Shown: piece after piece, positions 3,936-32,761 of the stretch
Layout of the letters: every line of letters begins with the position of its first letter
How positions within the stretch are numbered: position 1 is the stretch's first letter
Virus record (IMG/VR): IMGVR_UViG_3300017778_005394
Location: 1-32,761 of that record
Length of the DNA stretch: 32,761 nucleotides
Direction: 5' to 3' (one strand)
From: a virus
Lineage: Duplodnaviria > Caudoviricetes
Notes under the pieces: generated by a model
Seen by the model: only the letters and a program-made list of their open reading frames with translations
Told to the model about the DNA's origin: nothing
The model's database searches: none
Made by a program: the position numbers and the translations under genes

Positions 3936-4310
3936 TTATATGTAACTAGCCCGGCGTGTTTCTTGATCAAAGAATATAGAGAGTATTTCGGCGTTGGAGC
4001 TGGACACTATTTGTATTTGCAGTTCAAATAAGATACCATTTTCCTGCGGATAGGTGTAGACATTGGCCACAGTGAGCCTGGGATCGCCGCCGGCCACACG
4101 TTGTATTTCATTTTTCATGGCGATTTCGGTTTCAAGAGTCTGTGGTTCAAACAAGAAATCAAAGATTGCACTACCATACGCAGGTCTACCCACTAGCTCA
4201 CCTTGGCGTATGTTAAAGGCGTTGAGAAGATCACGCTTGATGAGATCCCGATCTACCAAGGTAAACTTTTTGAATTGGTTAATGGTGTTATAGCCAATGA
4301 ATGTTGTCAT
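3936..4310 (-). CDS. Baseplate wedge subunit, gp25-like
   Basis: 124 aa with the DLIKRDLLN.F....GE....P.YGS.I...LFEP and DPR motifs of the GPW/gp25 family. Confidence 0.9.
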   Translation of the reverse strand: MTTFIGYNTINQFKKFTLVDRDLIKRDLLNAFNIRQGELVGRPAYGSAIFDFLFEPQTLETEIAMKNEIQRVAGGDPRLTVANVYTYPQENGILFELQIQIVSSSNAEILSIFFDQETRRASYI

Positions 4311-13488: not shown

Positions 13489-14382
13489 GTGTCTGTAACT
13501 ATCCCACGTACGGCGCCCCGCGTCAACTATCTAAACAATCGCGACATACTCAAAGAAATACATTTTTCAAAAAACACTTACTGCTCGTTTGTTGATCCGG
13601 CAACTGATCATCAGTTTGATATGATCCTGCCCAGTGTGACAAAAATCAATCAAAAGACTGTGGCCGAAGCTCGTCGCAATCGTGCAGATCGCATCAAACG
13701 TGACACCGGTACAATAGTTGATCCAAAAAAAATACCCAACACTGATTTGGTTTTTAGAATCACAACCTGGGATCATGTGCCCAAAGCTCCCAAAAAAATC
13801 ACCAAGGCAGCAGCAAAGAAAGCCAGCCTGGAAGAACTGTTTGAAATCGTAGACGAGCCTACGGCCGATGATCTAGTAGACGAGCCAGTGTTGGACATGG
13901 CCTATATACGTGTTAATTTTCCTCCGTTCTGGCACTACAGAATTGACGGGAACAAACAACCATTTGTTGTGGGCAAGTCGCACTGGCGAGGTGATCTGGC
14001 CACAGGCGAGTTCTGCAAAGAACACGGGCAAATGACCAAGAAGCTGGCCTTGATGTTTATGAAACTGTGTGAACGTTATGCCACCCGTAGTAACTGGCGT
14101 GGTTATACCTACAACGAAGAAATGCGTGGCCAAGCCTTGTTACAACTCAGTCAGATTGGCCTACAGTTTGATGAGTCAAAGTCACAGAATCCTTTTGCCT
14201 ACTACACTGCTGCCATTACCAACAGCTTTACTCGTATCTTGAACATTGAAAAGAAAATGCAAAACATACGTGATGACATCTTAGAGATGAACGGATTGAA
14301 TCCAAGTTGGACTAGACAAAATTCCGGCAAAAGTCCCGGAGCAGTGATGTCCATTCCGGTTGCAATGCCACAGGACGACTAG
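13489..14382 (+). CDS. Late-transcription sigma factor, T4 gp55-like
   Basis: NYLNN, NWRGYTYNEEM and FDE.KS.NPFAYYT....NSF motifs. Lies directly upstream of gp47/gp46 as in T4-like phages. Confidence 0.85.
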   Translation: MSVTIPRTAPRVNYLNNRDILKEIHFSKNTYCSFVDPATDHQFDMILPSVTKINQKTVAEARRNRADRIKRDTGTIVDPKKIPNTDLVFRITTWDHVPKAPKKITKAAAKKASLEELFEIVDEPTADDLVDEPVLDMAYIRVNFPPFWHYRIDGNKQPFVVGKSHWRGDLATGEFCKEHGQMTKKLALMFMKLCERYATRSNWRGYTYNEEMRGQALLQLSQIGLQFDESKSQNPFAYYTAAITNSFTRILNIEKKMQNIRDDILEMNGLNPSWTRQNSGKSPGAVMSIPVAMPQDD

Positions 14383-14388
14383 TATAAT
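14360..14388 (+). promoter_or_regulatory. Putative sigma70-type promoter upstream of the gp47-like gene
   Basis: TTGCAA (14360-65), 17-nt spacer, TATAAT (14383-88). Confidence 0.55.
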
Positions 14389-14396
14389 GTTGTCAT

Positions 14397-15413
14397 ATGG
14401 CCAACTTATTTAAAAAAGCAGTAGTATTCACTGACATCCACTTTGGACTAAAGTCAAACAGTCAAACCCACAATGATGACTGTTTGGCTTTTGTCAAGTG
14501 GGCAACCAAACTAGCAAAGGAAAACAACTGTGAAACAGCTATGTTTCTTGGAGATTGGCATAATCACCGCGCTAGTATCAATATTGTCACTCTTAACTAT
14601 AGTCTCCGTGCTCTGGAACATCTCAACGACAACTTCGATCGTGTGTTTTTCATTCCTGGCAATCATGACTTATATTATCGTGACCGACGTGATGTCCAAA
14701 GTGTTGAGTGGGCTAAACATTTACCGAATGTGGTCATTTGTAATGATTGGTTACACAGCGGTGATGTTATTGTGGCCCCTTGGTTAGTAGGCGAAGACTA
14801 CAAACGCATACCAAAATTATCAGCCAAGTACATGTTTGGACATTTTGAACTACCGCATTTTAAAATGAATGCCATGGTAGAAATGCCGGATCATGGAGAT
14901 ATCAAACGTGAAGACTTTGGTGGCATTGGACATGTGTTCTCTGGCCACTTCCACAAACGTCAGACTTATAAAAATATCACCTACATTGGCAACTGCTTTC
15001 CGCACAACTTTGCCGACAATTATGATGACGAGCGCGGTGCAATGATCATTGACTGGGGCAAAGAACCTGTGTATCATGCTTGGCCTGATCAACCTCGGTA
15101 TCGTGTGTTGAGACTGTCAGATGTCATTGACAATGCGCCAACAGTATTGGCCAAGAATATGCATGTTAGAGTTGAGCTTGACATAGACATCAGCTATGAA
15201 GAAGCAAACTTTATCAAAGAAACATTTATCAAAGACTATCACCTGCGTGAGATGGCGTTAATTCCCAACAAGAGTGCTGCCATAGATGTTGACATGGCAC
15301 CAGGAGAAATAAGATTTGAGTCAGTGGATCAAATTGTCACAGATCAACTCACCAACATTGAATCTGAATTCTATGATTCTAAACTACTGTTAAAAATATA
15401 TCAAGAACTATAA
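14397..15413 (+). CDS. Recombination endonuclease subunit, gp47/Mre11/SbcD-like
   Basis: Metallophosphoesterase motifs DIHFG, GDW, GNHD and SGHFH. Confidence 0.93.
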   Translation: MANLFKKAVVFTDIHFGLKSNSQTHNDDCLAFVKWATKLAKENNCETAMFLGDWHNHRASINIVTLNYSLRALEHLNDNFDRVFFIPGNHDLYYRDRRDVQSVEWAKHLPNVVICNDWLHSGDVIVAPWLVGEDYKRIPKLSAKYMFGHFELPHFKMNAMVEMPDHGDIKREDFGGIGHVFSGHFHKRQTYKNITYIGNCFPHNFADNYDDERGAMIIDWGKEPVYHAWPDQPRYRVLRLSDVIDNAPTVLAKNMHVRVELDIDISYEEANFIKETFIKDYHLREMALIPNKSAAIDVDMAPGEIRFESVDQIVTDQLTNIESEFYDSKLLLKIYQEL

Positions 15414-15414
15414 C

Positions 15415-16182
15415 ATGGTCGTATACAGCAATTCTTGTAGCTTTGGTGCTCCACAAGAACATCCCACTTACGCCGACTATGTCAGTGAGCATTTCAAAGC
15501 GTCAGTGGTCAATCACGGGCTGATGAATAGCTGCAATCAACGCATCATACGCACTACCTTGCGAGATTTGTTAGAATTAAAAAAACAACATCATGACATC
15601 ACGGCATTGGTTGGATTATCTTTTATTTCAAGAGTCGAACTCTGGCAGTCAGACCTGCCAGCTCAAAGAAACGATGGACATTTTCATTCCATCTGTGTTG
15701 ATCATCAAAAAATTGACTGGAGTCTCAAGGGCCTAATTGATACCCGTGTACCCAACATACATCTCATGACTGATCCTGCAGTGCGAGATTACTACAAAAA
15801 CTGGCTGATACACTATTCACCCGAAGCTGAGATTTCAAATCTATTGACGAACTTATTGATGCTATCAGGGTGGGCAAAACAACACAACATAAATTTGTTG
15901 ATATTTTCAAACGTTGATGTGCTGCCTGCTGCAGATGCTGTGGGATACGATTCCCCTTTCCTGTCCACATTGGTAGAAGAAATACGCCAGGATCCTAGTT
16001 TCGTTGATCCTTGGCAATTTAGTTTTGGCACGTATGTGCTGGCACATGGGTTTCATCCCAAGGACTACCAGTTATATCGCCAACACGGGCACCCTGGACA
16101 ATTGGCACACGAATTTTTTTCTAAATTTTTAATAGATAAGTTAGAAAAAAATAGTTCTTGTGTCACATATACTGTACAATAA
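15415..16182 (+). CDS. Hypothetical protein, possibly SGNH-hydrolase-like
   Basis: 255 aa with N-terminal NSCSF, N.G....N.RI.RT and C-terminal GHPG..AH, reminiscent of SGNH blocks. Confidence 0.5.
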   Translation: MVVYSNSCSFGAPQEHPTYADYVSEHFKASVVNHGLMNSCNQRIIRTTLRDLLELKKQHHDITALVGLSFISRVELWQSDLPAQRNDGHFHSICVDHQKIDWSLKGLIDTRVPNIHLMTDPAVRDYYKNWLIHYSPEAEISNLLTNLLMLSGWAKQHNINLLIFSNVDVLPAADAVGYDSPFLSTLVEEIRQDPSFVDPWQFSFGTYVLAHGFHPKDYQLYRQHGHPGQLAHEFFSKFLIDKLEKNSSCVTYTVQ

Positions 16183-16204
16183 CTGTTATAATAAGGAACC
16201 ACAG

Positions 16205-17968
16205 TTGATTAACATAAAGAATTTAACCGTTAAAAACTTCATGAGTGTGGGCAATGCCACGCAAGCGGTTGACTTTGATCGTCGTGATCTCACCTTGGTG
16301 CTGGGAGAAAATCTTGATCTGGGTGGTGACGGGTCCAGAAACGGTACCGGTAAAACCACTATCATCAATGCCTTGAGTTTTGCCTTGTATGGGCAGGCAC
16401 TGACCAACATTCGCAAAGACAATCTCATCAACAAAACCAACGGTAAAAACATGTTGGTGAGTTTGGACTTTGATCTTGATGGCAAGACCTATCGTGTTGA
16501 ACGTGGTCGCAAGCCCAATATCCTAAAATTTTATGTTGACAACGAACAGACCACTGCTGATGATGAAGCACAAGGTGATTCGCGAGAAACCCAGGACGTC
16601 ATAGAGCGGCTGCTGGGACTGAGTCATGATATGTTTCGTCATGTTGTGGCATTGAATACTTACACTGAACCGTTTTTAAGTCTCAAGGCCAATGATCAAC
16701 GTGTGATCATTGAACAGTTGCTGGGCATTACATTGCTGAGTGAACGTGCTGATCGCATCAAAGAACTCAACAAACAAACCAAAGATGCTATCCAGCAAGA
16801 AGAATTTAGAATACGTGCTGTACAAGAAGCCAATAAACGCATTGAAGAACAAATTGCTGCGGCTCAACGCAGACAAACACTCTGGCAAAAGAAACGCGAC
16901 GAGGACATTGCTGCATTTCAGCTAGCCTACGATGAACTTGGTAAAGTTGACATCGAAGCCGAATTACAAGCGCATCAAGCACTCACTGAATACAACATCA
17001 AGAAAAAAGCCATAGCCGATCTCACAGCCTGGATCAAACGCTGTGAATTAGATGAAGCCAGGGAAAAGAAAGAAATTGCCAAGATAGAGTTGGAAATTGC
17101 CAGCCTTGAACAACACACTTGCCACAGTTGTGGGCAGGCATTTCATGACAGCAAACACGAACAAGTATTAGAAGCCAAAAGAAAAGCATTGTCTGAGGCT
17201 GCAATGCAGGCCCTGTCTACAAACGGTCAATGGATGGAACATACTGACACATTGCAAGAGTTGGGAGAGCTAGGCACTCAGCCCCGTGTGTTTTATGATC
17301 AAGAATCCGACGCCTATGAACATCGTTCAAGCATGGCACATGTGTTGAGTCAGCTCATGTCCAAACAAAACGAAGTTGATCCTTATGTTGATCAAATTGC
17401 TGACATGACTGCACAGGCAGTACAGACCGTTGAGTATGACGCATTGAACGAACTCACCCGGTTGCAGGATCATCAAGAATTTTTGTTGAAGTTGTTGACG
17501 CAGAAGGATTCATTCATACGCAAGAAGATCATTGAACAAAATCTCAGCTATCTCAATGCTAGACTCACACACTATCTTGACAGGATTGGGTTACCGCATA
17601 CAGTGGTGTTTCAAAACGATCTCACTGTGCAAATTGAAGAACTAGGACGTGAACTTGACTTTGATAATTTAAGTCGTGGTGAACGCAATCGTCTCATACT
17701 CAGTATGAGTTGGGCATTCCGTGATGTCTGGGAAAGTTTGTATCGTCCTATCAACTTGTTGTTTATTGATGAGATGATTGACTCAGGCATGGACACTCAA
17801 GGTGTTGAAAGCAGTCTTGCATTGCTGAAGAAGATGAGTCGTGAACGCAATAAAAGTATTTGGTTGGTGTCGCATCGTGATGAACTTGCCGGACGAGTTG
17901 AGAACATTCTCAAGGTTGTCAAAAGCAACGGTTTTACAGAATATAACACGGACGTTGAAACAGTATGA
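16205..17968 (+). CDS. Recombination ATPase subunit, gp46/Rad50/SbcC-like
   Basis: Walker A NGTGKTT, coiled coil with CHSC zinc hook, signature LSRGE, Walker B LLFIDE and SH. The start is placed at TTG 16205, after AAGGA and an extended -10 TGtTATAAT (16184-92). Confidence 0.93.
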   Translation: MINIKNLTVKNFMSVGNATQAVDFDRRDLTLVLGENLDLGGDGSRNGTGKTTIINALSFALYGQALTNIRKDNLINKTNGKNMLVSLDFDLDGKTYRVERGRKPNILKFYVDNEQTTADDEAQGDSRETQDVIERLLGLSHDMFRHVVALNTYTEPFLSLKANDQRVIIEQLLGITLLSERADRIKELNKQTKDAIQQEEFRIRAVQEANKRIEEQIAAAQRRQTLWQKKRDEDIAAFQLAYDELGKVDIEAELQAHQALTEYNIKKKAIADLTAWIKRCELDEAREKKEIAKIELEIASLEQHTCHSCGQAFHDSKHEQVLEAKRKALSEAAMQALSTNGQWMEHTDTLQELGELGTQPRVFYDQESDAYEHRSSMAHVLSQLMSKQNEVDPYVDQIADMTAQAVQTVEYDALNELTRLQDHQEFLLKLLTQKDSFIRKKIIEQNLSYLNARLTHYLDRIGLPHTVVFQNDLTVQIEELGRELDFDNLSRGERNRLILSMSWAFRDVWESLYRPINLLFIDEMIDSGMDTQGVESSLALLKKMSRERNKSIWLVSHRDELAGRVENILKVVKSNGFTEYNTDVETV

Positions 17969-18975
17969 GTCTAGCACTTTGGCACTGGCATATTGAAATA
18001 TCCAGCAAGTGTACATTGCGGTGCCCTCGTTGCGCTCGGCAAGAAGTACCTGATGGATTTAAAAATACCGAACTGAGTTTAGAATTCTTCTGGCAAAATT
18101 TCCCTGAATCATTCATTCAGCACCATGTAGAAAAACTTACATTCTGTGGCGATGATGGTGATCCCATCTATGCACATGATTTGCTGGAAGTTATCAAATA
18201 TTTCAAGAATACCAAACCCACTATTGAAATTGTGATTGTCACCAATGGTAGTTACAAAGATCCAGACTGGTGGCAAGAGCTGGGAAGATTGTTGGATATC
18301 CAGGACAGCGTACATTTCAGCATTGATGGATACAACGATGCATCCAACAATCAATATCGTGTCAACAGCAACTACCACAGCATCATAGCCGGCGTCCAGG
18401 CACTGCGAGCAGCAAGCAAATGTCAAATTGTCTGGGCCGCAATTGCGTTTTCATTCAACGAGCAGCATTTGGAACAGATGAAAGATCAAGCCCAACAGTT
18501 GGGCATGGATCGGTTTCAGTTGACACGCAGCACCAAGTTCTATAAAATCTACCCCAGTTACGGACCTGTGGACACCCTGCAGCCCCGGGACGAATTGATC
18601 AGCAATACCTTGCGTTTTGAACGTGAGGTCACTGATTTTACAGGCCGTAGCACTGCGATTTGGTCCGTTAATCGCAAACTTTACACAGACAGTCAAGTAC
18701 AAAATAATGTGAGACCTCTGTGCTCAATTGGCAATAAAGGCCTCTATATCAGCGCACAGGGTAACTTTTACCCTTGCTGTTGGGTGGCCAATCGCTATGA
18801 ACACAACCAACCCTGGCAGCGGTTGGGGCAAAAATACAATCTGCACACACAGGATTTACAGCAAGTTCTCGCTGACAATTTCTGGCAAAATGAGTTCCAG
18901 ACCTATGGTTGGATTGAATGTCAAACCAAATGTGCTGCTGCTGTGGTCACAGAAGAATATGCAACTCAGTGGTAA
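17965..18975 (+). CDS. Radical SAM protein with C-terminal SPASM/twitch-like cysteines
   Basis: CTLRCPRC (CxxxCxxC), GDP, TNG and FSIDG motifs, plus C-terminal C...G..YPCCW...CQTKC. Confidence 0.88.
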   Translation: MSLALWHWHIEISSKCTLRCPRCARQEVPDGFKNTELSLEFFWQNFPESFIQHHVEKLTFCGDDGDPIYAHDLLEVIKYFKNTKPTIEIVIVTNGSYKDPDWWQELGRLLDIQDSVHFSIDGYNDASNNQYRVNSNYHSIIAGVQALRAASKCQIVWAAIAFSFNEQHLEQMKDQAQQLGMDRFQLTRSTKFYKIYPSYGPVDTLQPRDELISNTLRFEREVTDFTGRSTAIWSVNRKLYTDSQVQNNVRPLCSIGNKGLYISAQGNFYPCCWVANRYEHNQPWQRLGQKYNLHTQDLQQVLADNFWQNEFQTYGWIECQTKCAAAVVTEEYATQW

Positions 18976-18993: not shown

Positions 18994-19428
18994 ATGTCAT
19001 GGCTATTTGAATCTCTTGTAGTAGAATCGCTTCCTGAAGATTGTGCAGGATTTGTGTATTTGATCACAAACAACACAACCGGCAGGAAGTATATTGGTAA
19101 AAAACTGGCAAGATTTAAACGAACAACTTATCGAGTGGTTAAACTTAAAAACGGTAACAAAAAGCGCAAGAAAATCAGAGGTACAATAGATTCAGACTGG
19201 CAAACATATTATGGCTCATCACCCGAACTCTCCAAAGACATAGAACAACTAGGCATAGAAAACTTCTCCCGCGAAATATTGTATTATTGCAAAACCAAAT
19301 CGGAATGCAGTTATATAGAGGCTCGTGAACAATTCTCAAGACGTGTGCTGGAATCAGATGACTACTATAATGGTCATATTCAAGTTCGCGTCCATGGCTC
19401 GCATATCAAAGGCAAACTAAGCAACTAA
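18994..19428 (+). CDS. Short GIY-YIG family nuclease
   Basis: GFVYLITN...GRKYIGKK, Y.GSS, REIL, a catalytic-type E and YYN. Only 144 aa. Confidence 0.85.
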   Translation: MSWLFESLVVESLPEDCAGFVYLITNNTTGRKYIGKKLARFKRTTYRVVKLKNGNKKRKKIRGTIDSDWQTYYGSSPELSKDIEQLGIENFSREILYYCKTKSECSYIEAREQFSRRVLESDDYYNGHIQVRVHGSHIKGKLSN

Positions 19429-19790
19429 GGCTAGCACAGGCCAACATCGTGTGCCCTAGACCTGGATCTCAGATCACAGGGACGGAAGACTCACCGCGCT
19501 AGTGAGCACTCAACTACTACCCGAAAGGATGAAGATCGCAAACGCCGCGATTTAGTTGTTTGAAAAGGACAAAAGGCAAAAAAGACGCTTGAGCGATCAA
19601 GCACGTTTGTTGGCAAGGACTAGCATCTTGTTGATAAACCGCCGTTGTAATAAAGACGGGGATGGAGGTACCGGACAACCGCCTCTGCTAAACACCCTAA
19701 TGCTAGTGACTGTGATACTCGGATGATGTCGCATTTTTCTTTGCCCGCCCTGGGCAAAGAGTGACTGCTTTATCTGGATGATATCTTTAA
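19429..19790 (+). ncRNA. Candidate highly structured non-coding RNA (family not recognised)
   Basis: No ORF of 60 aa or more. Contains about 10 stems, GNRA tetraloops (GAAA, GCGA), G-U pairs favouring the + strand, and an 8-bp loop-distal pseudoknot. Boundaries are approximate. Confidence 0.65.
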
Positions 19791-19827
19791 AGACAGTACA
19801 TTGATGAACGCAGTGAAATCAATAGAA

Positions 19828-20865
19828 CTACGAAGTAGTTCTCAAAGCATGATGATTAGGCTCCAACAATGTATGTAACTTTTGAGTATTGTCAGGAAAT
19901 GATTCAAGTTGCCAATTACGAATGTTAAGGTTGTGTTGATAAATCAAACGATGTTGAATGATTGCCTCTTGTAACAGAGTCAATGGACGCAATGGGTAAT
20001 ACCATCCCTTGACTGTGGCGATCACAATGTGATCTAGCTCATAACAAAATTTTAAGATTTGCTGTTGTATTTGTTGCCATTGTTGATATACCACTCTCCA
20101 ATGTACCATCTGGGTTTCTATTAGAGATTCATCAATGTACTGTAGACATCTCCTCACTACAGATTCCCCATCATGCCACAGTTCTTCGCAGTTGATCCAA
20201 AGATGTGGATTGGAGAAGTCTATCATCTCATTGTTGGGATTGAACTTGTCAACTTGCAGATTCAATGCCAGCATTTCTCTTTGATCCCAGATTGGATCTG
20301 TGCTGCGTATCTTATTGGCAAAGAACCATTGGTGAACTGCTATGAACATGTCATCGTGGTAGTCTATGCTTTGACCAACATTGGTTTGATACTTGGCTCG
20401 ATTCAGGGCCAGTGAATGATAAGTCAAGTTAGGCGTAGTCGGTGACAGATAGATCATAGGCACATTGGATGTACTGCAAGATTGGATTATCTGGGCATAG
20501 TCAATGTCACAGGTGGTCAACAGATACTGCCAGATTTGAGGATCCTGCATACGTTGTTCTGTGAACCCCAGTGCCAGTGCGACTATTTCTGGTGGCATGG
20601 GCGCAGGATAAAAAGAGTGAAAAGTTTTGGTGTTTGTTTGTTGTAAGTCTGCTAGAGCCGACAAAAATTCGCTGTGTCCAGTTGGATGATTTTTTAAATG
20701 CTGATGTGCATTGTTGTTGTCAATGGGAGAGTCTGTCAACGATATCCATGCCTGCTGCTCAACATTGTAGACTTTGTGATGTCCGGTGAGCCAATGCAAA
20801 CTCCAGTCTAAAAATGTAGCCCCCACAGGTGCTGAACTGGTAACACATACTACTTTAGATGTCAT
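19828..20865 (-). CDS. Hypothetical protein, possibly sulfotransferase/P-loop-like fold
   Basis: Long ORF, probably starting at ATG 20865 (MTSKVVCVTSSAPVGATFLDWSL), which loosely resembles a PAPS-binding loop. Confidence 0.5.
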   Translation of the reverse strand: MTSKVVCVTSSAPVGATFLDWSLHWLTGHHKVYNVEQQAWISLTDSPIDNNNAHQHLKNHPTGHSEFLSALADLQQTNTKTFHSFYPAPMPPEIVALALGFTEQRMQDPQIWQYLLTTCDIDYAQIIQSCSTSNVPMIYLSPTTPNLTYHSLALNRAKYQTNVGQSIDYHDDMFIAVHQWFFANKIRSTDPIWDQREMLALNLQVDKFNPNNEMIDFSNPHLWINCEELWHDGESVVRRCLQYIDESLIETQMVHWRVVYQQWQQIQQQILKFCYELDHIVIATVKGWYYPLRPLTLLQEAIIQHRLIYQHNLNIRNWQLESFPDNTQKLHTLLEPNHHALRTTS

Positions 20866-21187
20866 CTGGCCAATCTCTAAACAGTGCGTGTTGTATATTG
20901 CCTGATACGAACTGATTGAAGCTACGATGCTTGTCTTCAAGCTCACCTTTGAGTGGTGCTACTCGGCGAAAAGCTTCATCCATCTGTGCCATGCCCGTGA
21001 ATTCCATGATGATCATCCACTCGGGCATGTCAGAGATTGATCTAAATCCCATCTTGCAACGTGTAATTCTATAACTTTCCATCTTGTTTTCTTCCACAAG
21101 ATGATCAAAGAAGCTGCGCATGTTGGTGACCCACTCAAGATCAGAGATGTCGCCTTGTTTGTCGGCCCATATAGTGTATAAGTCCAT
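20855..21187 (-). CDS. Small protein resembling the DUF6614 family
   Basis: 110 aa with the pattern MDLYTIW...RITRCKMGF...EF..MAQMDEAF...H...LFRDWPD, recognised from memory. Confidence 0.55.
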   Translation of the reverse strand: MDLYTIWADKQGDISDLEWVTNMRSFFDHLVEENKMESYRITRCKMGFRSISDMPEWMIIMEFTGMAQMDEAFRRVAPLKGELEDKHRSFNQFVSGNIQHALFRDWPDDI

Positions 21188-21627
21188 TATGTCATTGGTC
21201 CCAAAATTTCAAATCCATCTATTTGGCTCTTGTACAGATGTGCCTGCTCAAGATACAAATAATCAAAACCTCGTGCCCGATAGATGGCACATTCGGTTTT
21301 CATTGTTTCAATACCCAGCCTCAGTTCGGGACGATGATATGTCCAAGCAAACTGATCGCACAGGGCATTGCAATCATCAAACCTGCGTATCAAACTCCAG
21401 GCCACTAACTTATTGTCGTCATAGTAGCCAATGATGTCGGACCCTGGATCACGATACCGACTTGGAAACATCGGCATCACAGATCCAAACTTTTTGTAAA
21501 TGCAATAGGTTCTGTAGATGTCATCTAACTGCTGACATATTTCGGGGGTGGGTTTGAGATATTGCCACGCCACTGATTCAGTGTAGTTGGTCTCGTCAAG
21601 ATTGATCCTGGCAAATTGATAAGTCAC
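21187..21627 (-). CDS. GNAT-fold protein resembling the C-terminal domain of arginyl/leucyl-tRNA-protein transferase (ATE/Bpt)
   Basis: YY...KLVAWS...Y..P.L.LG......E....R.RG..YLYL parallels the ATE_C consensus. Confidence 0.55.
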   Translation of the reverse strand: MTYQFARINLDETNYTESVAWQYLKPTPEICQQLDDIYRTYCIYKKFGSVMPMFPSRYRDPGSDIIGYYDDNKLVAWSLIRRFDDCNALCDQFAWTYHRPELRLGIETMKTECAIYRARGFDYLYLEQAHLYKSQIDGFEILGPMT

Positions 21628-22127
21628 AGTCTAGGGTCCTGGCGATGTGCAAACAAGCCTTGTAGATAATCTTCGGGCCAGTTTTGATAGTAGCCCTTGT
21701 GAGCCAACTGTTGTGCTGCTGCTTCTAGTTTTGTTTTGTCTTGCAAGAATATCAGTGCGTATTGCCCTTGGTTCATTGCAACACCGTTGATGATTTCTGG
21801 CGAGTCAGGATGATCAGTTAGGGCCAACATATTCTTGTTGTCAAGATAATTGACCTGTACCATCCGAGCACAGTTTTCCATATGGCCAGCACTGACTGTT
21901 TTGGGATCATAAACAAGAGCCACAACCTCGCGTCCTTGCATGCCCCAGCGCCAGTGATTTACCAAATCAAAGTAGGGATCGTTACCTGGCACAATGGCAA
22001 TGGTGTTGGCTAACCTGGCCTGACGAGCATACGGGCACGGCGCCCAGTTGTTGAGTGCAGGGTTGGGCTTTTCAACAAAGTCCGTGATCCACTGCTCAAT
22101 GTCCAGTTTGGCTTGTTCAAAATCCAT
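21624..22127 (-). CDS. DUF1415-like hypothetical protein
   Basis: W...FV......L....CPYA N-terminal motif and an internal HP. Confidence 0.5.
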   Translation of the reverse strand: MDFEQAKLDIEQWITDFVEKPNPALNNWAPCPYARQARLANTIAIVPGNDPYFDLVNHWRWGMQGREVVALVYDPKTVSAGHMENCARMVQVNYLDNKNMLALTDHPDSPEIINGVAMNQGQYALIFLQDKTKLEAAAQQLAHKGYYQNWPEDYLQGLFAHRQDPRL

Positions 22128-22315
22128 TAGAAGAATGGTAAATTTGTTTTCTTGGTGGTTTCAAGATTGTCTTTGATCAATTCATTGATCTGGACTCGTT
22201 CTTCCCAGCTCAAATTTAAAATTTGTTCGTAAGTCATCCCACCACGCATATACCAGCTCATCCTAACTGCTTCTCGCCGTATATCCGCGGCCTCTGTGTC
22301 CATGGTAGTGATCAT
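22127..22315 (-). CDS. Small baseplate/tail assembly protein (gp51-like); probably the frameshifted extension of the upstream gene
   Basis: WYMRGGMTYEQILNLSWEER motif. Its frame stays open upstream to the slippery site at 22357-22363. Confidence 0.65.
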   Translation of the reverse strand: MITTMDTEAADIRREAVRMSWYMRGGMTYEQILNLSWEERVQINELIKDNLETTKKTNLPFF

Positions 22316-22341
22316 TGCCTCAATTTCTTCCGGACCGGAAG

Positions 22342-23184
22342 TTAAGAGGCGTTGCCGAAAAAATTAGATTGGTTTAATGTAAATGATTGCTGATACTCAT
22401 GTTCGCAACTGCCACATTTAATGGTCAGTGGCTTAAAATCACTGTCCTTGCGCAGATCTATAATATGATCTCTAATCTCTTGAAATACTTTACGATCGCA
22501 GTTTCTTAAAAAATCTTCAATGTGAGATTTTTCAGTGACCATGACGTTGGGTGTTTTGATCGTGCTGATGGACATCCCCAACATTCTCACAGTTAGATCT
22601 GTGATCTGTGTCATGGCACCCTTTAGAATTTCTATTTTTTCTTCCTCGGGGACATTGGCATCATTAAGATTCTGAATTGTTTTTTGATCCTGGAACTGTG
22701 CTGACGTAGTGGTATGCAACTGTTGATAGCTAATTGGTGCAAAGTATATTTCAAGATCACCCTGACTCACTGTTTGATCATAATTGGGCATGCGCAAGTT
22801 CTGCAGGATGGTTCTAAGATCAATGGTGTATTCATCCTCATGCTGACAGTCCGGGCAGGCAGTGCTGAGTTCTAACTCATGTCCATAGCTGGCTATTCTA
22901 ATGGCAGTCAGTATGGTGTCAACATCCACTACCGGGCAATGCCAGGCATTTTTAATGCTTGGGCAACAGCTCTGTATAACTGAAACCACAGCCTGGCCAT
23001 TGAACAGTGCATCAGGAGTGCGATAAGTTATTTCATCAATTGCAGTCATGGGCAGCACAGGTAGCTCATGATTTTCGGGCATTGTCAGCGATCCCGGTGG
23101 CCAAAATTGTCCATCACTGGGTAACTGTACGTAAATGGCTGGCTGCCGAAAGTAGTGATTTAAAGGGTTAGTTGGTTGGGTCAT
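22342..23184 (-). CDS. Baseplate hub assembly chaperone, gp26-like
   Basis: NPL..YFRQP, LPS.G, MTA.DE, D.D..L.AIRIASYG and two CxxC pairs (CPDC, CGSC). The start is 23184 or 23196. Confidence 0.75.
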   Translation of the reverse strand: MTQPTNPLNHYFRQPAIYVQLPSDGQFWPPGSLTMPENHELPVLPMTAIDEITYRTPDALFNGQAVVSVIQSCCPSIKNAWHCPVVDVDTILTAIRIASYGHELELSTACPDCQHEDEYTIDLRTILQNLRMPNYDQTVSQGDLEIYFAPISYQQLHTTTSAQFQDQKTIQNLNDANVPEEEKIEILKGAMTQITDLTVRMLGMSISTIKTPNVMVTEKSHIEDFLRNCDRKVFQEIRDHIIDLRKDSDFKPLTIKCGSCEHEYQQSFTLNQSNFFGNAS

Positions 23185-23193
23185 TTTTATGTC

Positions 23194-23219
23194 CATAAAT
23201 ATAAGATAAAGTACTTATA
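23194..23219. promoter_or_regulatory. Divergent pair of putative late promoters
   Basis: CATAAATA on + (23194-23201) facing the tape-measure gene, and TATAAGTA on - (23212-23219) facing the gp26-like gene. Confidence 0.5.
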
Positions 23220-32680: not shown

Positions 32681-32761
32681 TACTGTCCGCAATAATGCGG
32701 CTTATGCGGTATTAACCCACCGCGTAGTGGTTAGAACCCACATCGGACTTCTTTAAGGAGA

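Follow-up and report, generated by a model that had tools for sequence, protein, structure and literature searches.

Directly behind the gene of a small GIY-YIG nuclease in a freshwater giant phage lies a conserved, non-coding element of ~355 nt with three pseudoknots, in which a heptamer recurs ~55 nt downstream as a direct repeat, and the two copies have changed in concert. Two hairpins form a conserved tail behind the second copy, the element is single-copy in each of two near-complete genomes, and RNA and nuclease each occur without the other in relatives. The element may be a cis-acting RNA that primes phage DNA replication in the manner of ColE1 RNA II, a reading that we hold to be nearly evenly balanced, leaning slightly to doubt. 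If it is true, an orphan Rfam motif from 2010 would turn out to be a new kind of initiator RNA that phages have in common with bacterial islands and that carries a changeable 7-nt address. The heptamer pair is a sharp, directly testable self-targeting signature in an RNA that was only partly catalogued before, and the locus illustrates that a structured RNA beside a nuclease gene need not mean an RNA-guided system.

Genome setting

The window (the whole stretch of 32,761 nt that was analysed) is part of a large T4-like phage genome, with profile matches to gp55, gp47, gp46, portal, major capsid and baseplate genes. The closest cultured matches of the baseplate hub are in RaK2/GAP32-like jumbo phages, at ~27-32% identity. 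The locus is the meeting point of the plus-strand gp55-gp47-gp46 operon with a minus-strand block (Table 1). A first-pass annotation, made from the sequence alone, had reported a minimal GIY-YIG ORF of 144 aa followed by an ORF-free gap, and both are present in the ORF list as described: no ORF is found from the nuclease gene to 19828, where an opposite-strand ORF ends, and the ORFs on both sides of the gap are complete. The nuclease-RNA block lies between two insertion hotspots. The inserts around gp46 are a radical SAM gene and a DUF6071-like gene (17965-18975 and 15415-16182). A further RNA, Rfam freshwater-2 (RF02980, 54.1 bits), is found at 32685-32761 on the plus strand, truncated by the end of the window.

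Table 1. Features of the locus and its surroundings (positions in the window)
Positions	Strand	Feature	Basis
13489-17968	+	Upstream operon context: late sigma gp55, gp47 (SbcD-like), gp46 (SbcC-like)	ORF list, profiles
18994-19428	+	Gene of the 144-aa single-domain GIY-YIG nuclease; residues 40-66 modelled as a basic beta-hairpin	Profiles, structure model
19410-19414	+	AGGCA box within the final nuclease codons, directly 5' of the RNA	Sequence inspection
19429-19561	+	5' domain: RF01718 plus 5' pseudoknot (19429-31 with 19440-42)	Rfam, covariation
19562-19760	+	Uncatalogued 3' two-thirds: P7, long P8, two pseudoknots, P10, core, last hairpin	Covariation
19667-19683	+	Near-invariant core of the RNA	
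19717-19727	+	ACTC box and heptamer copy 1 (19721-27), unpaired in the covariation model; putative DNA-pairing loop	
19738-19760	+	Last hairpin of the RNA body	
19772-19782	+	ATCT box and heptamer copy 2 (19776-82), same as copy 1; putative DNA target site	
19800-19842		Conserved tail	Locus comparison, pair counts
19800-19823		Tail hairpin with GA-rich internal motif	
19824-19842		Perfect C-GAA-G triloop hairpin; probable DNA-type hairpin, predicted minus-strand terminator	
19828-23196	-	Converging block: variable ORFs, gp51-like gene, baseplate hub	ORF list, profiles, locus comparison

Extent and fold of the RNA

The first-pass annotation missed that the 5' third of the RNA (133 nt) is already catalogued: it matches Rfam RF01718, the Polynucleobacter-1 motif, at 118.8 bits (gathering score 37) over model positions 1-141, which is the whole model, and a match to a described Rfam family had been named beforehand as telling against the proposed nuclease-RNA system. 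Weinberg et al. 2010 (PMC2864571) gives the motif a freshwater origin, which agrees with the setting here. The family spans only the first 133 of ~355 conserved nt, and its model lacks the three pseudoknots, the heptamer pair and the tail; conservation extends past the match to ~19845. No paper on the function of RF01718 was found, and nothing on this RNA beyond Weinberg 2010, in a literature search that covered subscription journals thinly. Rfam gives no further match in the gap at E up to 10, the 3' two-thirds included. Resemblances to RNase P and group I introns, picked up by eye, were dropped when no Rfam match appeared at that threshold. The suggestion of a ribozyme or intron derivative likewise finds nothing to rest on: group I/II introns, RNase P and known ribozymes have no covariance-model match in the gap, and the flanking ORFs are whole and uninterrupted.

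For the comparative analysis, 103 full-length HMM matches were reduced to 77 non-redundant type-A sequences, of which 63 were aligned; the 14 left out are at least 385 nt long and carry long insertions. An unbiased column scan was followed by a hand-built model of 79 pairs, in which 91.6% of cells are paired and 59 of the 79 pairs show double changes. None of 500 shuffles is as good, and slid controls reach 34-44%, a comparison biased in favour of the model, which was derived from the same 63 sequences. Three pseudoknots covary (19429-31/19440-42, 19621-26/19700-05 and 19644-48/19675-79), so that the large pseudoknotted RNA proposed earlier holds across homologues; the fold of the gap as a single sequence is modest (z -2.19, with 4 of 100 shuffles equally good).

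Most of the stems first read from the one sequence are also kept: GCACA/TGTGC, CC/GG and GAGGT/GCCTC are paired in 99%, ATCGC/GCGAT in 96% (for four pairs), CAACTA/TAGTTG in 95%, CTCAC/GTGAG in 93% and CCTG-GATC in 86%. TTTGCCC/GGGCAAA is paired in 90%, with double changes in only one of its seven pairs, and GCTTGA/TCAAGC, which varies in length, in 76%. The exception is CCGT/ACGG, which was rejected: its outer pairs form in no more than 52% and 63% of sequences, and the partner of 19659-62 is 19694-97.

Because G-U cells (243) outnumber A-C cells (83), the body reads as plus-strand RNA. Contigs from lake metatranscriptomes span 19398-19723 and 19453-19660 without a mismatch, which could be DNA carry-over; they show neither ends, strand nor level of a transcript, and the parts that they leave uncovered are uninformative. 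Transcription of the element as a discrete RNA is likely.

Two further RNA types, B and C, have the same 3' architecture as type A, yet fall mostly outside Rfam (8 of 20 loci matched). A blastn search of the RNA against annotated phages and plasmids returns no match, and neither the phage RNA nor an island RNA (see below) has a match among plasmids. The core pattern has 121 matches in bacterial genomes, of which only three are real by HMM and the others chance; none of 151 genomes sampled from one bacterial family gives an RF01718 match, in a search run without a positive control. More distant large structured elements, with the same 17-nt core as this RNA, occur in jumbo phage contigs at ~4000 in loci L114 and L150, where there is no adjacent GIY-YIG gene and no clear heptamer pair. 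In locus L083 the RNA lacks heptamer copy 1 and the last hairpin (~4020-4045), by natural deletion or assembly error.

A heptamer pair that changes in concert

The identity of 19721-27 and 19776-82 is the strongest non-pairing signal in the column scan. In fixed columns of the type-A alignment the two heptamers have 0 mismatches at all seven positions in 63 of 63 sequences, while the heptamer itself takes nine forms; on a tree built without the heptamer columns, at least 37 parallel changes are counted (15+2+11+9). The neighbouring boxes are fixed: ACTC and ATCT, 5' of the first and second copy, are invariantly different from each other, and at the eighth position the copies mostly disagree. 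When the best pair is sought in each core, a procedure that favours matches, the copies agree in 128 of 138 type-A and type-B cores. Among the ten others, five have a variant box and were matched by eye, L069 shows a single G/A difference, L083 is without copy 1, two are distant elements on which no call is made, and one is a chance match. All six type-C loci match as well, with a different heptamer.

No conserved complementary third site is found within 1.5 kb in 103 loci. Two copies that covary in identity and have no complement in the strand are the pattern expected of an RNA loop that pairs with the template strand under copy 2, and we consider such RNA-DNA pairing through the heptamer, judged from the comparison of homologues, to be probable. 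The rare differences between copies are all G upstream and A downstream (L069, and five positions in three related island RNAs), a direction that fits an rG-dT wobble; these exceptions are few and come partly from related RNAs, with the island register set by eye.

A variable guide beside the conserved scaffold had been suggested as something to look for. No guide-like segment with a target was found within the loci or in two whole genomes, and across 78 loci the variable 3' segment of the RNA matches its own locus no better than other loci. A 16-nt perfect inverted match (19793-19808 with 20128-20143 on the minus strand) was considered as guide and target and rejected: it occurs in 1 of 78 loci, joins the variable 3' segment to the neighbouring minus-strand gene, and is absent from a relative that is 98% identical.

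The tail behind copy 2

The tail is present in 100 of 103 loci. Its last hairpin has 588 Watson-Crick pairs against 4 G-T and 2 A-C, and the loop is of the form C-GNA-G in 62 of 100. Loops of the C-GNA-G type are stable in single-stranded DNA, and from the pair counts the tail appears to consist of DNA-type hairpins.

Relatives in bacterial integrase islands

In a bacterial assembly, an RF01718 match lies between a DUF6641 gene and a tyrosine recombinase. Searching with the DUF6641-type protein adds 18 more loci, from 13 of 401 genomes; Rfam matched two of the 19 loci. Four of these loci have exact heptamer pairs of other sequence and three have a related pair. All seven end in a similar tail, and a SegE-type gene is absent from the stretches of them that were analysed. 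One island has a weak, unrelated HIRAN/GIY-YIG ORF (E 0.0013). The remaining loci have other ORFs in the slot or are unreadable.

One well-matched pair of islands differs in what occupies the slot. Four flanking genes are homologous (25-55% identity) between L410 and the RNA-bearing L409, and in place of the RNA L410 has a 197-aa Rep-like protein (PF23343; predicted structure resembling REP_ORF2-G2P, TM 0.67/0.88). Pfam gave the island Rep-like ORFs no name. A second HUH-like ORF (L404/L413), a guess by eye, has no blastp match to the first.

Two other island features were noted. A 527-aa ORF upstream of DUF6641 (L416 8106-9689; also L393 and L394) has family A polymerase-like motifs by eye; it has no Pfam match, and its nearest named Atlas cluster, DNA_pol_A at 0.76, is a lead only. 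In L392, L395, L399 and L405 a further island RNA type follows an ORF of 110-140 aa on the same strand, which belongs to no Pfam family.

A possible primer RNA

In the proposed mechanism, the first heptamer of the RNA would pair with the template DNA strand under the second. This pairing would hold an R-loop that primes phage DNA replication, and the tail hairpins would form in the single strand that it displaces, where they would serve to load replication proteins. That the same anatomy recurs with other heptamers in the DUF6641/integrase islands, and that a Rep-like gene can stand in the slot of the RNA, both suggest a primer. The element points into the long co-oriented arm near the main switch in gene orientation (genomes G009, G010 and Serratia phage BF), no more than ~10 kb from it in the two near-complete genomes. 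Base skews in three genomes follow the gene strand and give no independent replication signal. Seven base pairs is short for such pairing, which counts against the primer reading. So do the lack of a plasmid match, the slots of Atu_ph07 and Vibrio phage 2.275.O without a large gap, the loss of copy 1 in L083 and the location of the annotated PA5oct ncRNAs (below). An RNase HI family gene was found in one of four genomes and in none of G009, G010 and PA5oct, so that in those phages the primer model needs a host enzyme or another one.

The closest known parallel is the RNA II of ColE1, likewise a long folded non-coding RNA that hybridizes with its own template and replaces an initiator protein (PMC5043065 and PMC6312765); the likeness is one of presumed function. 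According to PMC5043065, the hybrid of RNA II with its template persists, RNase H trims the RNA, and Pol I uses it as primer, while the displaced strand loads the helicase. The two differ in that the element has no sequence, structure or Rfam homology to RNA II and no plasmid match, resides in jumbo phages and integrase islands, is pseudoknotted, and has a heptamer that is freely variable and mixed. No equivalent of the antisense RNA I was identified. Masukata and Tomizawa are said to have found in 1990 that a short upstream stretch of RNA II pairs with the template under an identical downstream stretch. The phage element has, on comparative grounds, the same feature: an upstream RNA stretch equals a downstream DNA stretch, and the two change in concert.

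A more general form of the primer reading is possible, and we hold it with real reservation: that the RNA family of RaK2-like jumbo phages and integrase islands consists of protein-free initiators with a programmable 7-nt loop, each RNA docking on its own template beside a fixed box, and is a second type of RNA-primer origin, interchangeable with an HUH Rep gene. The boldest version would have the small nuclease next to the RNA, whichever of the three folds it has, process the R-loop. The literature search turned up no paper that describes an RNA-based origin for these phages (290-490 kb), and the available text of the Minerva preprint names neither the RNA motif nor a nuclease. In a PA5oct RNA-seq study (PMC7318152), the four annotated ncRNAs lie elsewhere than the equivalent gap.

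The R-loop might also form through the heptamer and serve something other than priming, such as recombination entry by gp46/47, clamp loading for late transcription, or termination between the converging operons. The covariation applies to such a role equally well, the element closes the gp55-gp47-gp46 operon at a point of convergence, and the tail hairpin scores as a minus-strand terminator; we think it unlikely, since it explains neither why a Rep-like gene stands in the slot of one island nor why the tail recurs in islands where no gp46/gp55 context is seen.

Rather less likely again is that no hybrid forms and that a third party reads the heptamers, either a protein dimer or an antisense RNA from the converging operon, with the element a structural or regulatory ncRNA. 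Direct repeats ~55 nt apart with fixed boxes would suit a dimer, and converging transcription is present. No residue of the nuclease tracks the heptamer (best mutual information 0.35 of 1 bit), and the GIY-YIG protein is the only candidate reader that was checked. However, 0 mismatches over at least 37 changes and G-to-A exceptions fit base pairing better than the tolerance of a protein, and an antisense RNA would not need copy 2.

It is improbable that the whole element is folded single-stranded DNA (a single-strand origin or packaging signal) whose heptamers pair by strand slippage: the tail does resemble DNA hairpins, and the evidence of transcription comes from contigs open to DNA carry-over, but the body favours G-U over A-C by 3:1, its pseudoknots and junction motifs are typical of RNA, and Weinberg et al. 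list the 5' part as a probable RNA (PMC2864571).

The adjacent nuclease

The protein belongs to PF19835, SegE_GIY-YIG (116.3 bits in Pfam, cut-off 25), and to phrog_447 (E 7.5e-38 in PHROG), whose family label 'NAD synthetase' is a mislabel without support here. Only GIY-YIG families match it, by profiles and by structure, and neither RuvC nor HNH does. A single-sequence structure model (pLDDT 39) is not usable; an alignment-based model reaches pLDDT 84, and its best structural match is the catalytic domain of I-TevI (1ln0; Z 8.1, rmsd 2.4, 78 residues aligned), ahead of UvrC (Z 5.6) and T4 EndoII (Z 4.9). Foldseek finds no match at E up to 0.001, with I-TevI ranked top, and a search of PDB sequences gives nothing below E 0.67.

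Y22, Y33, G35, E109, E112 and N126 are invariant in 31 sequences, as are R111 and R132, and position 43 is R in this phage and K in at least 90% of relatives. The GIY-YIG catalytic set we take to be two Tyr, Arg, Glu and Asn, numbered here by analogy with I-TevI. The gene is conserved, with second-position differences of 0.18 against 0.51 at third positions. The protein is 142-146 aa long throughout, and its gene is single-copy and fixed in position between gp46 and the hub block. A homing endonuclease would have an appended DNA-recognition domain and a sporadic, mobile distribution, neither of which is found among proteins of this length; the GIY-YIG domain is that of I-TevI and the Seg homing genes, but it stands without the appended domain and is single-copy and syntenic. 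The family is large: 8000 of 8000 scored candidates matched, as do 499 annotated phage records.

The very basic insertion singled out in the first-pass annotation is real and is modelled as a long beta-hairpin. The same insert, with 9-12 K/R, is carried by homologues whose genes have no RNA beside them, and the phage Melnitz (51% identity) has the same hairpin; because these RNA-free homologues carry it, the insert does not point to RNA binding.

Some GIY-YIG enzymes, Slx1 among them, are junction resolvases. By analogy the protein is likely to be a resolvase, an independent branched-DNA nuclease of the gp46/gp47 recombination cluster rather than an RNA-guided enzyme, and this would suggest a job for a widespread protein that now bears the 'NAD synthetase' label.

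How closely nuclease and RNA are linked

Linkage was assessed from both sides. Starting from the protein, there are 80 loci, 72 of them with enough downstream DNA (redundant loci included); an RNA of type A, B or C follows within 250 nt in 61, after an inserted ORF in ten, and by eye only in one. Starting from the RNA, the gene is upstream in 65 of 71 loci; with duplicates and one chance match removed, it is adjacent in 52 of 66, separated in nine and absent within 4 kb in five. For comparison, gp46 and the GIY-YIG gene are adjacent in 9 of 59 loci, and the RNA and the gp51-like gene in 14 of 64. The linkage is real and tighter than synteny alone, and it is not obligate. One reason for it may be the AGGCA box, which lies within the final nuclease codons and is found no more than 60 nt upstream of 57 of the 103 type-A RNAs, against a background of ~1 per kb. 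Tandem repeats containing AGGCAC stand 5' of the RNA copies without a GIY-YIG gene in L090 and L137.

Each partner occurs without the other. The RNA is found without the nuclease in L090, L137 and L155 (partial contigs) and in the bacterial islands; the five RNA loci without the gene have no close homologue anywhere on their contigs, which are 5-26% complete (one weak match at 32%). Conversely, five annotated phage homologues of the nuclease (40-51% identity) have other ORFs closely downstream and no RNA match. RNA types A and B also switch ~10 times on the nuclease tree, against 25 with shuffled labels.

These patterns bear on the original proposal of a nuclease-RNA system. Its adjacency stands (52 of 66 loci), while the RNA-guided or ribonucleoprotein reading, and with it the idea of an inseparable pair, is not supported in view of type switching and of independent occurrence, which had likewise been named beforehand as telling against the proposal. 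In the version weighed here, the GIY-YIG protein would be a compact RNA-guided or RNA-regulated nuclease that binds the RNA and, perhaps by means of its heptamer loop, nicks or cuts the DNA next to the ATCT box. Adjacency persists despite insertion hotspots at both flanks, the search places an RNA behind the gene in 71 of 72 protein-first loci and inspection by eye adds one more, the protein is basic, intact and conserved, and the ATCT box 5' of the heptamer resembles a target-adjacent motif. Against this stand the RNAs without a nuclease, the nucleases without an RNA (Melnitz, with the same basic hairpin, among them) and the swapping of types A and B among close nuclease relatives; in addition, no mobile-element ends or guide-target match were seen, and there is one copy per genome. 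An RNA-guided nuclease is improbable. It is conceivable that the protein and the RNA touch each other or interact functionally at this locus, and the independent-nuclease reading does not fully explain their tight adjacency.

OMEGA systems (IscB/TnpB with omegaRNA, HEARO) combine a RuvC or HNH nuclease with an RNA in obligate pairing, and have a variable guide with a target. Like them, the locus places a structured RNA several hundred nt long immediately next to the gene of a compact nuclease. It differs in the GIY-YIG fold and in partners that are not obligate; no transposon context or flank-derived guide is seen, and the variable 7-mer matches in cis only. As for a retron or DRT-type combination of reverse transcriptase and ncRNA, PF00078 is found in 0 of 4 genomes (control found in 3 of 14; divergent reverse transcriptases could escape).

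A gene slot filled by different nucleases

In relatives, other nucleases are found where the GIY-YIG gene would be. A PF19835 gene is present in none of BF, PA5oct, Atu_ph07 and XacN1 (a positive control was found). In BF and PA5oct an EndoVII-like or PD-(D/E)xK gene occupies the nuclease slot, together with a gap poor in ORFs, and BF has a second, better EndoVII elsewhere in its genome. No PD-(D/E)xK_15, EndoVII or RusA is found in the near-complete genomes G009 and G010, where the GIY-YIG gene is present. In L137 and L155, a PD-(D/E)xK gene takes the place of GIY-YIG upstream of the RNA. The GIY-YIG protein thus appears to fill a slot for a branched-DNA nuclease beside gp46/47, in which other folds replace it in relatives.

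Atu_ph07 and Vibrio phage 2.275.O have no large gap in this slot. The gap of BF (L208 10061-10865; ~174.4-175.2 kb of the record) is 800 nt long. It opens with a 13-nt direct repeat, and a late hairpin in it is surrounded by a 7-mer repeat that has an ATCT box. The corresponding gap of PA5oct is at ~76.5-77.2 kb. The repeats in both phages were picked out by eye, in gaps where 6-7-mers often recur by chance. In L131, a different GIY-YIG gene of homing type (148-855, 235 aa) lies between the small nuclease gene and a type-B RNA.
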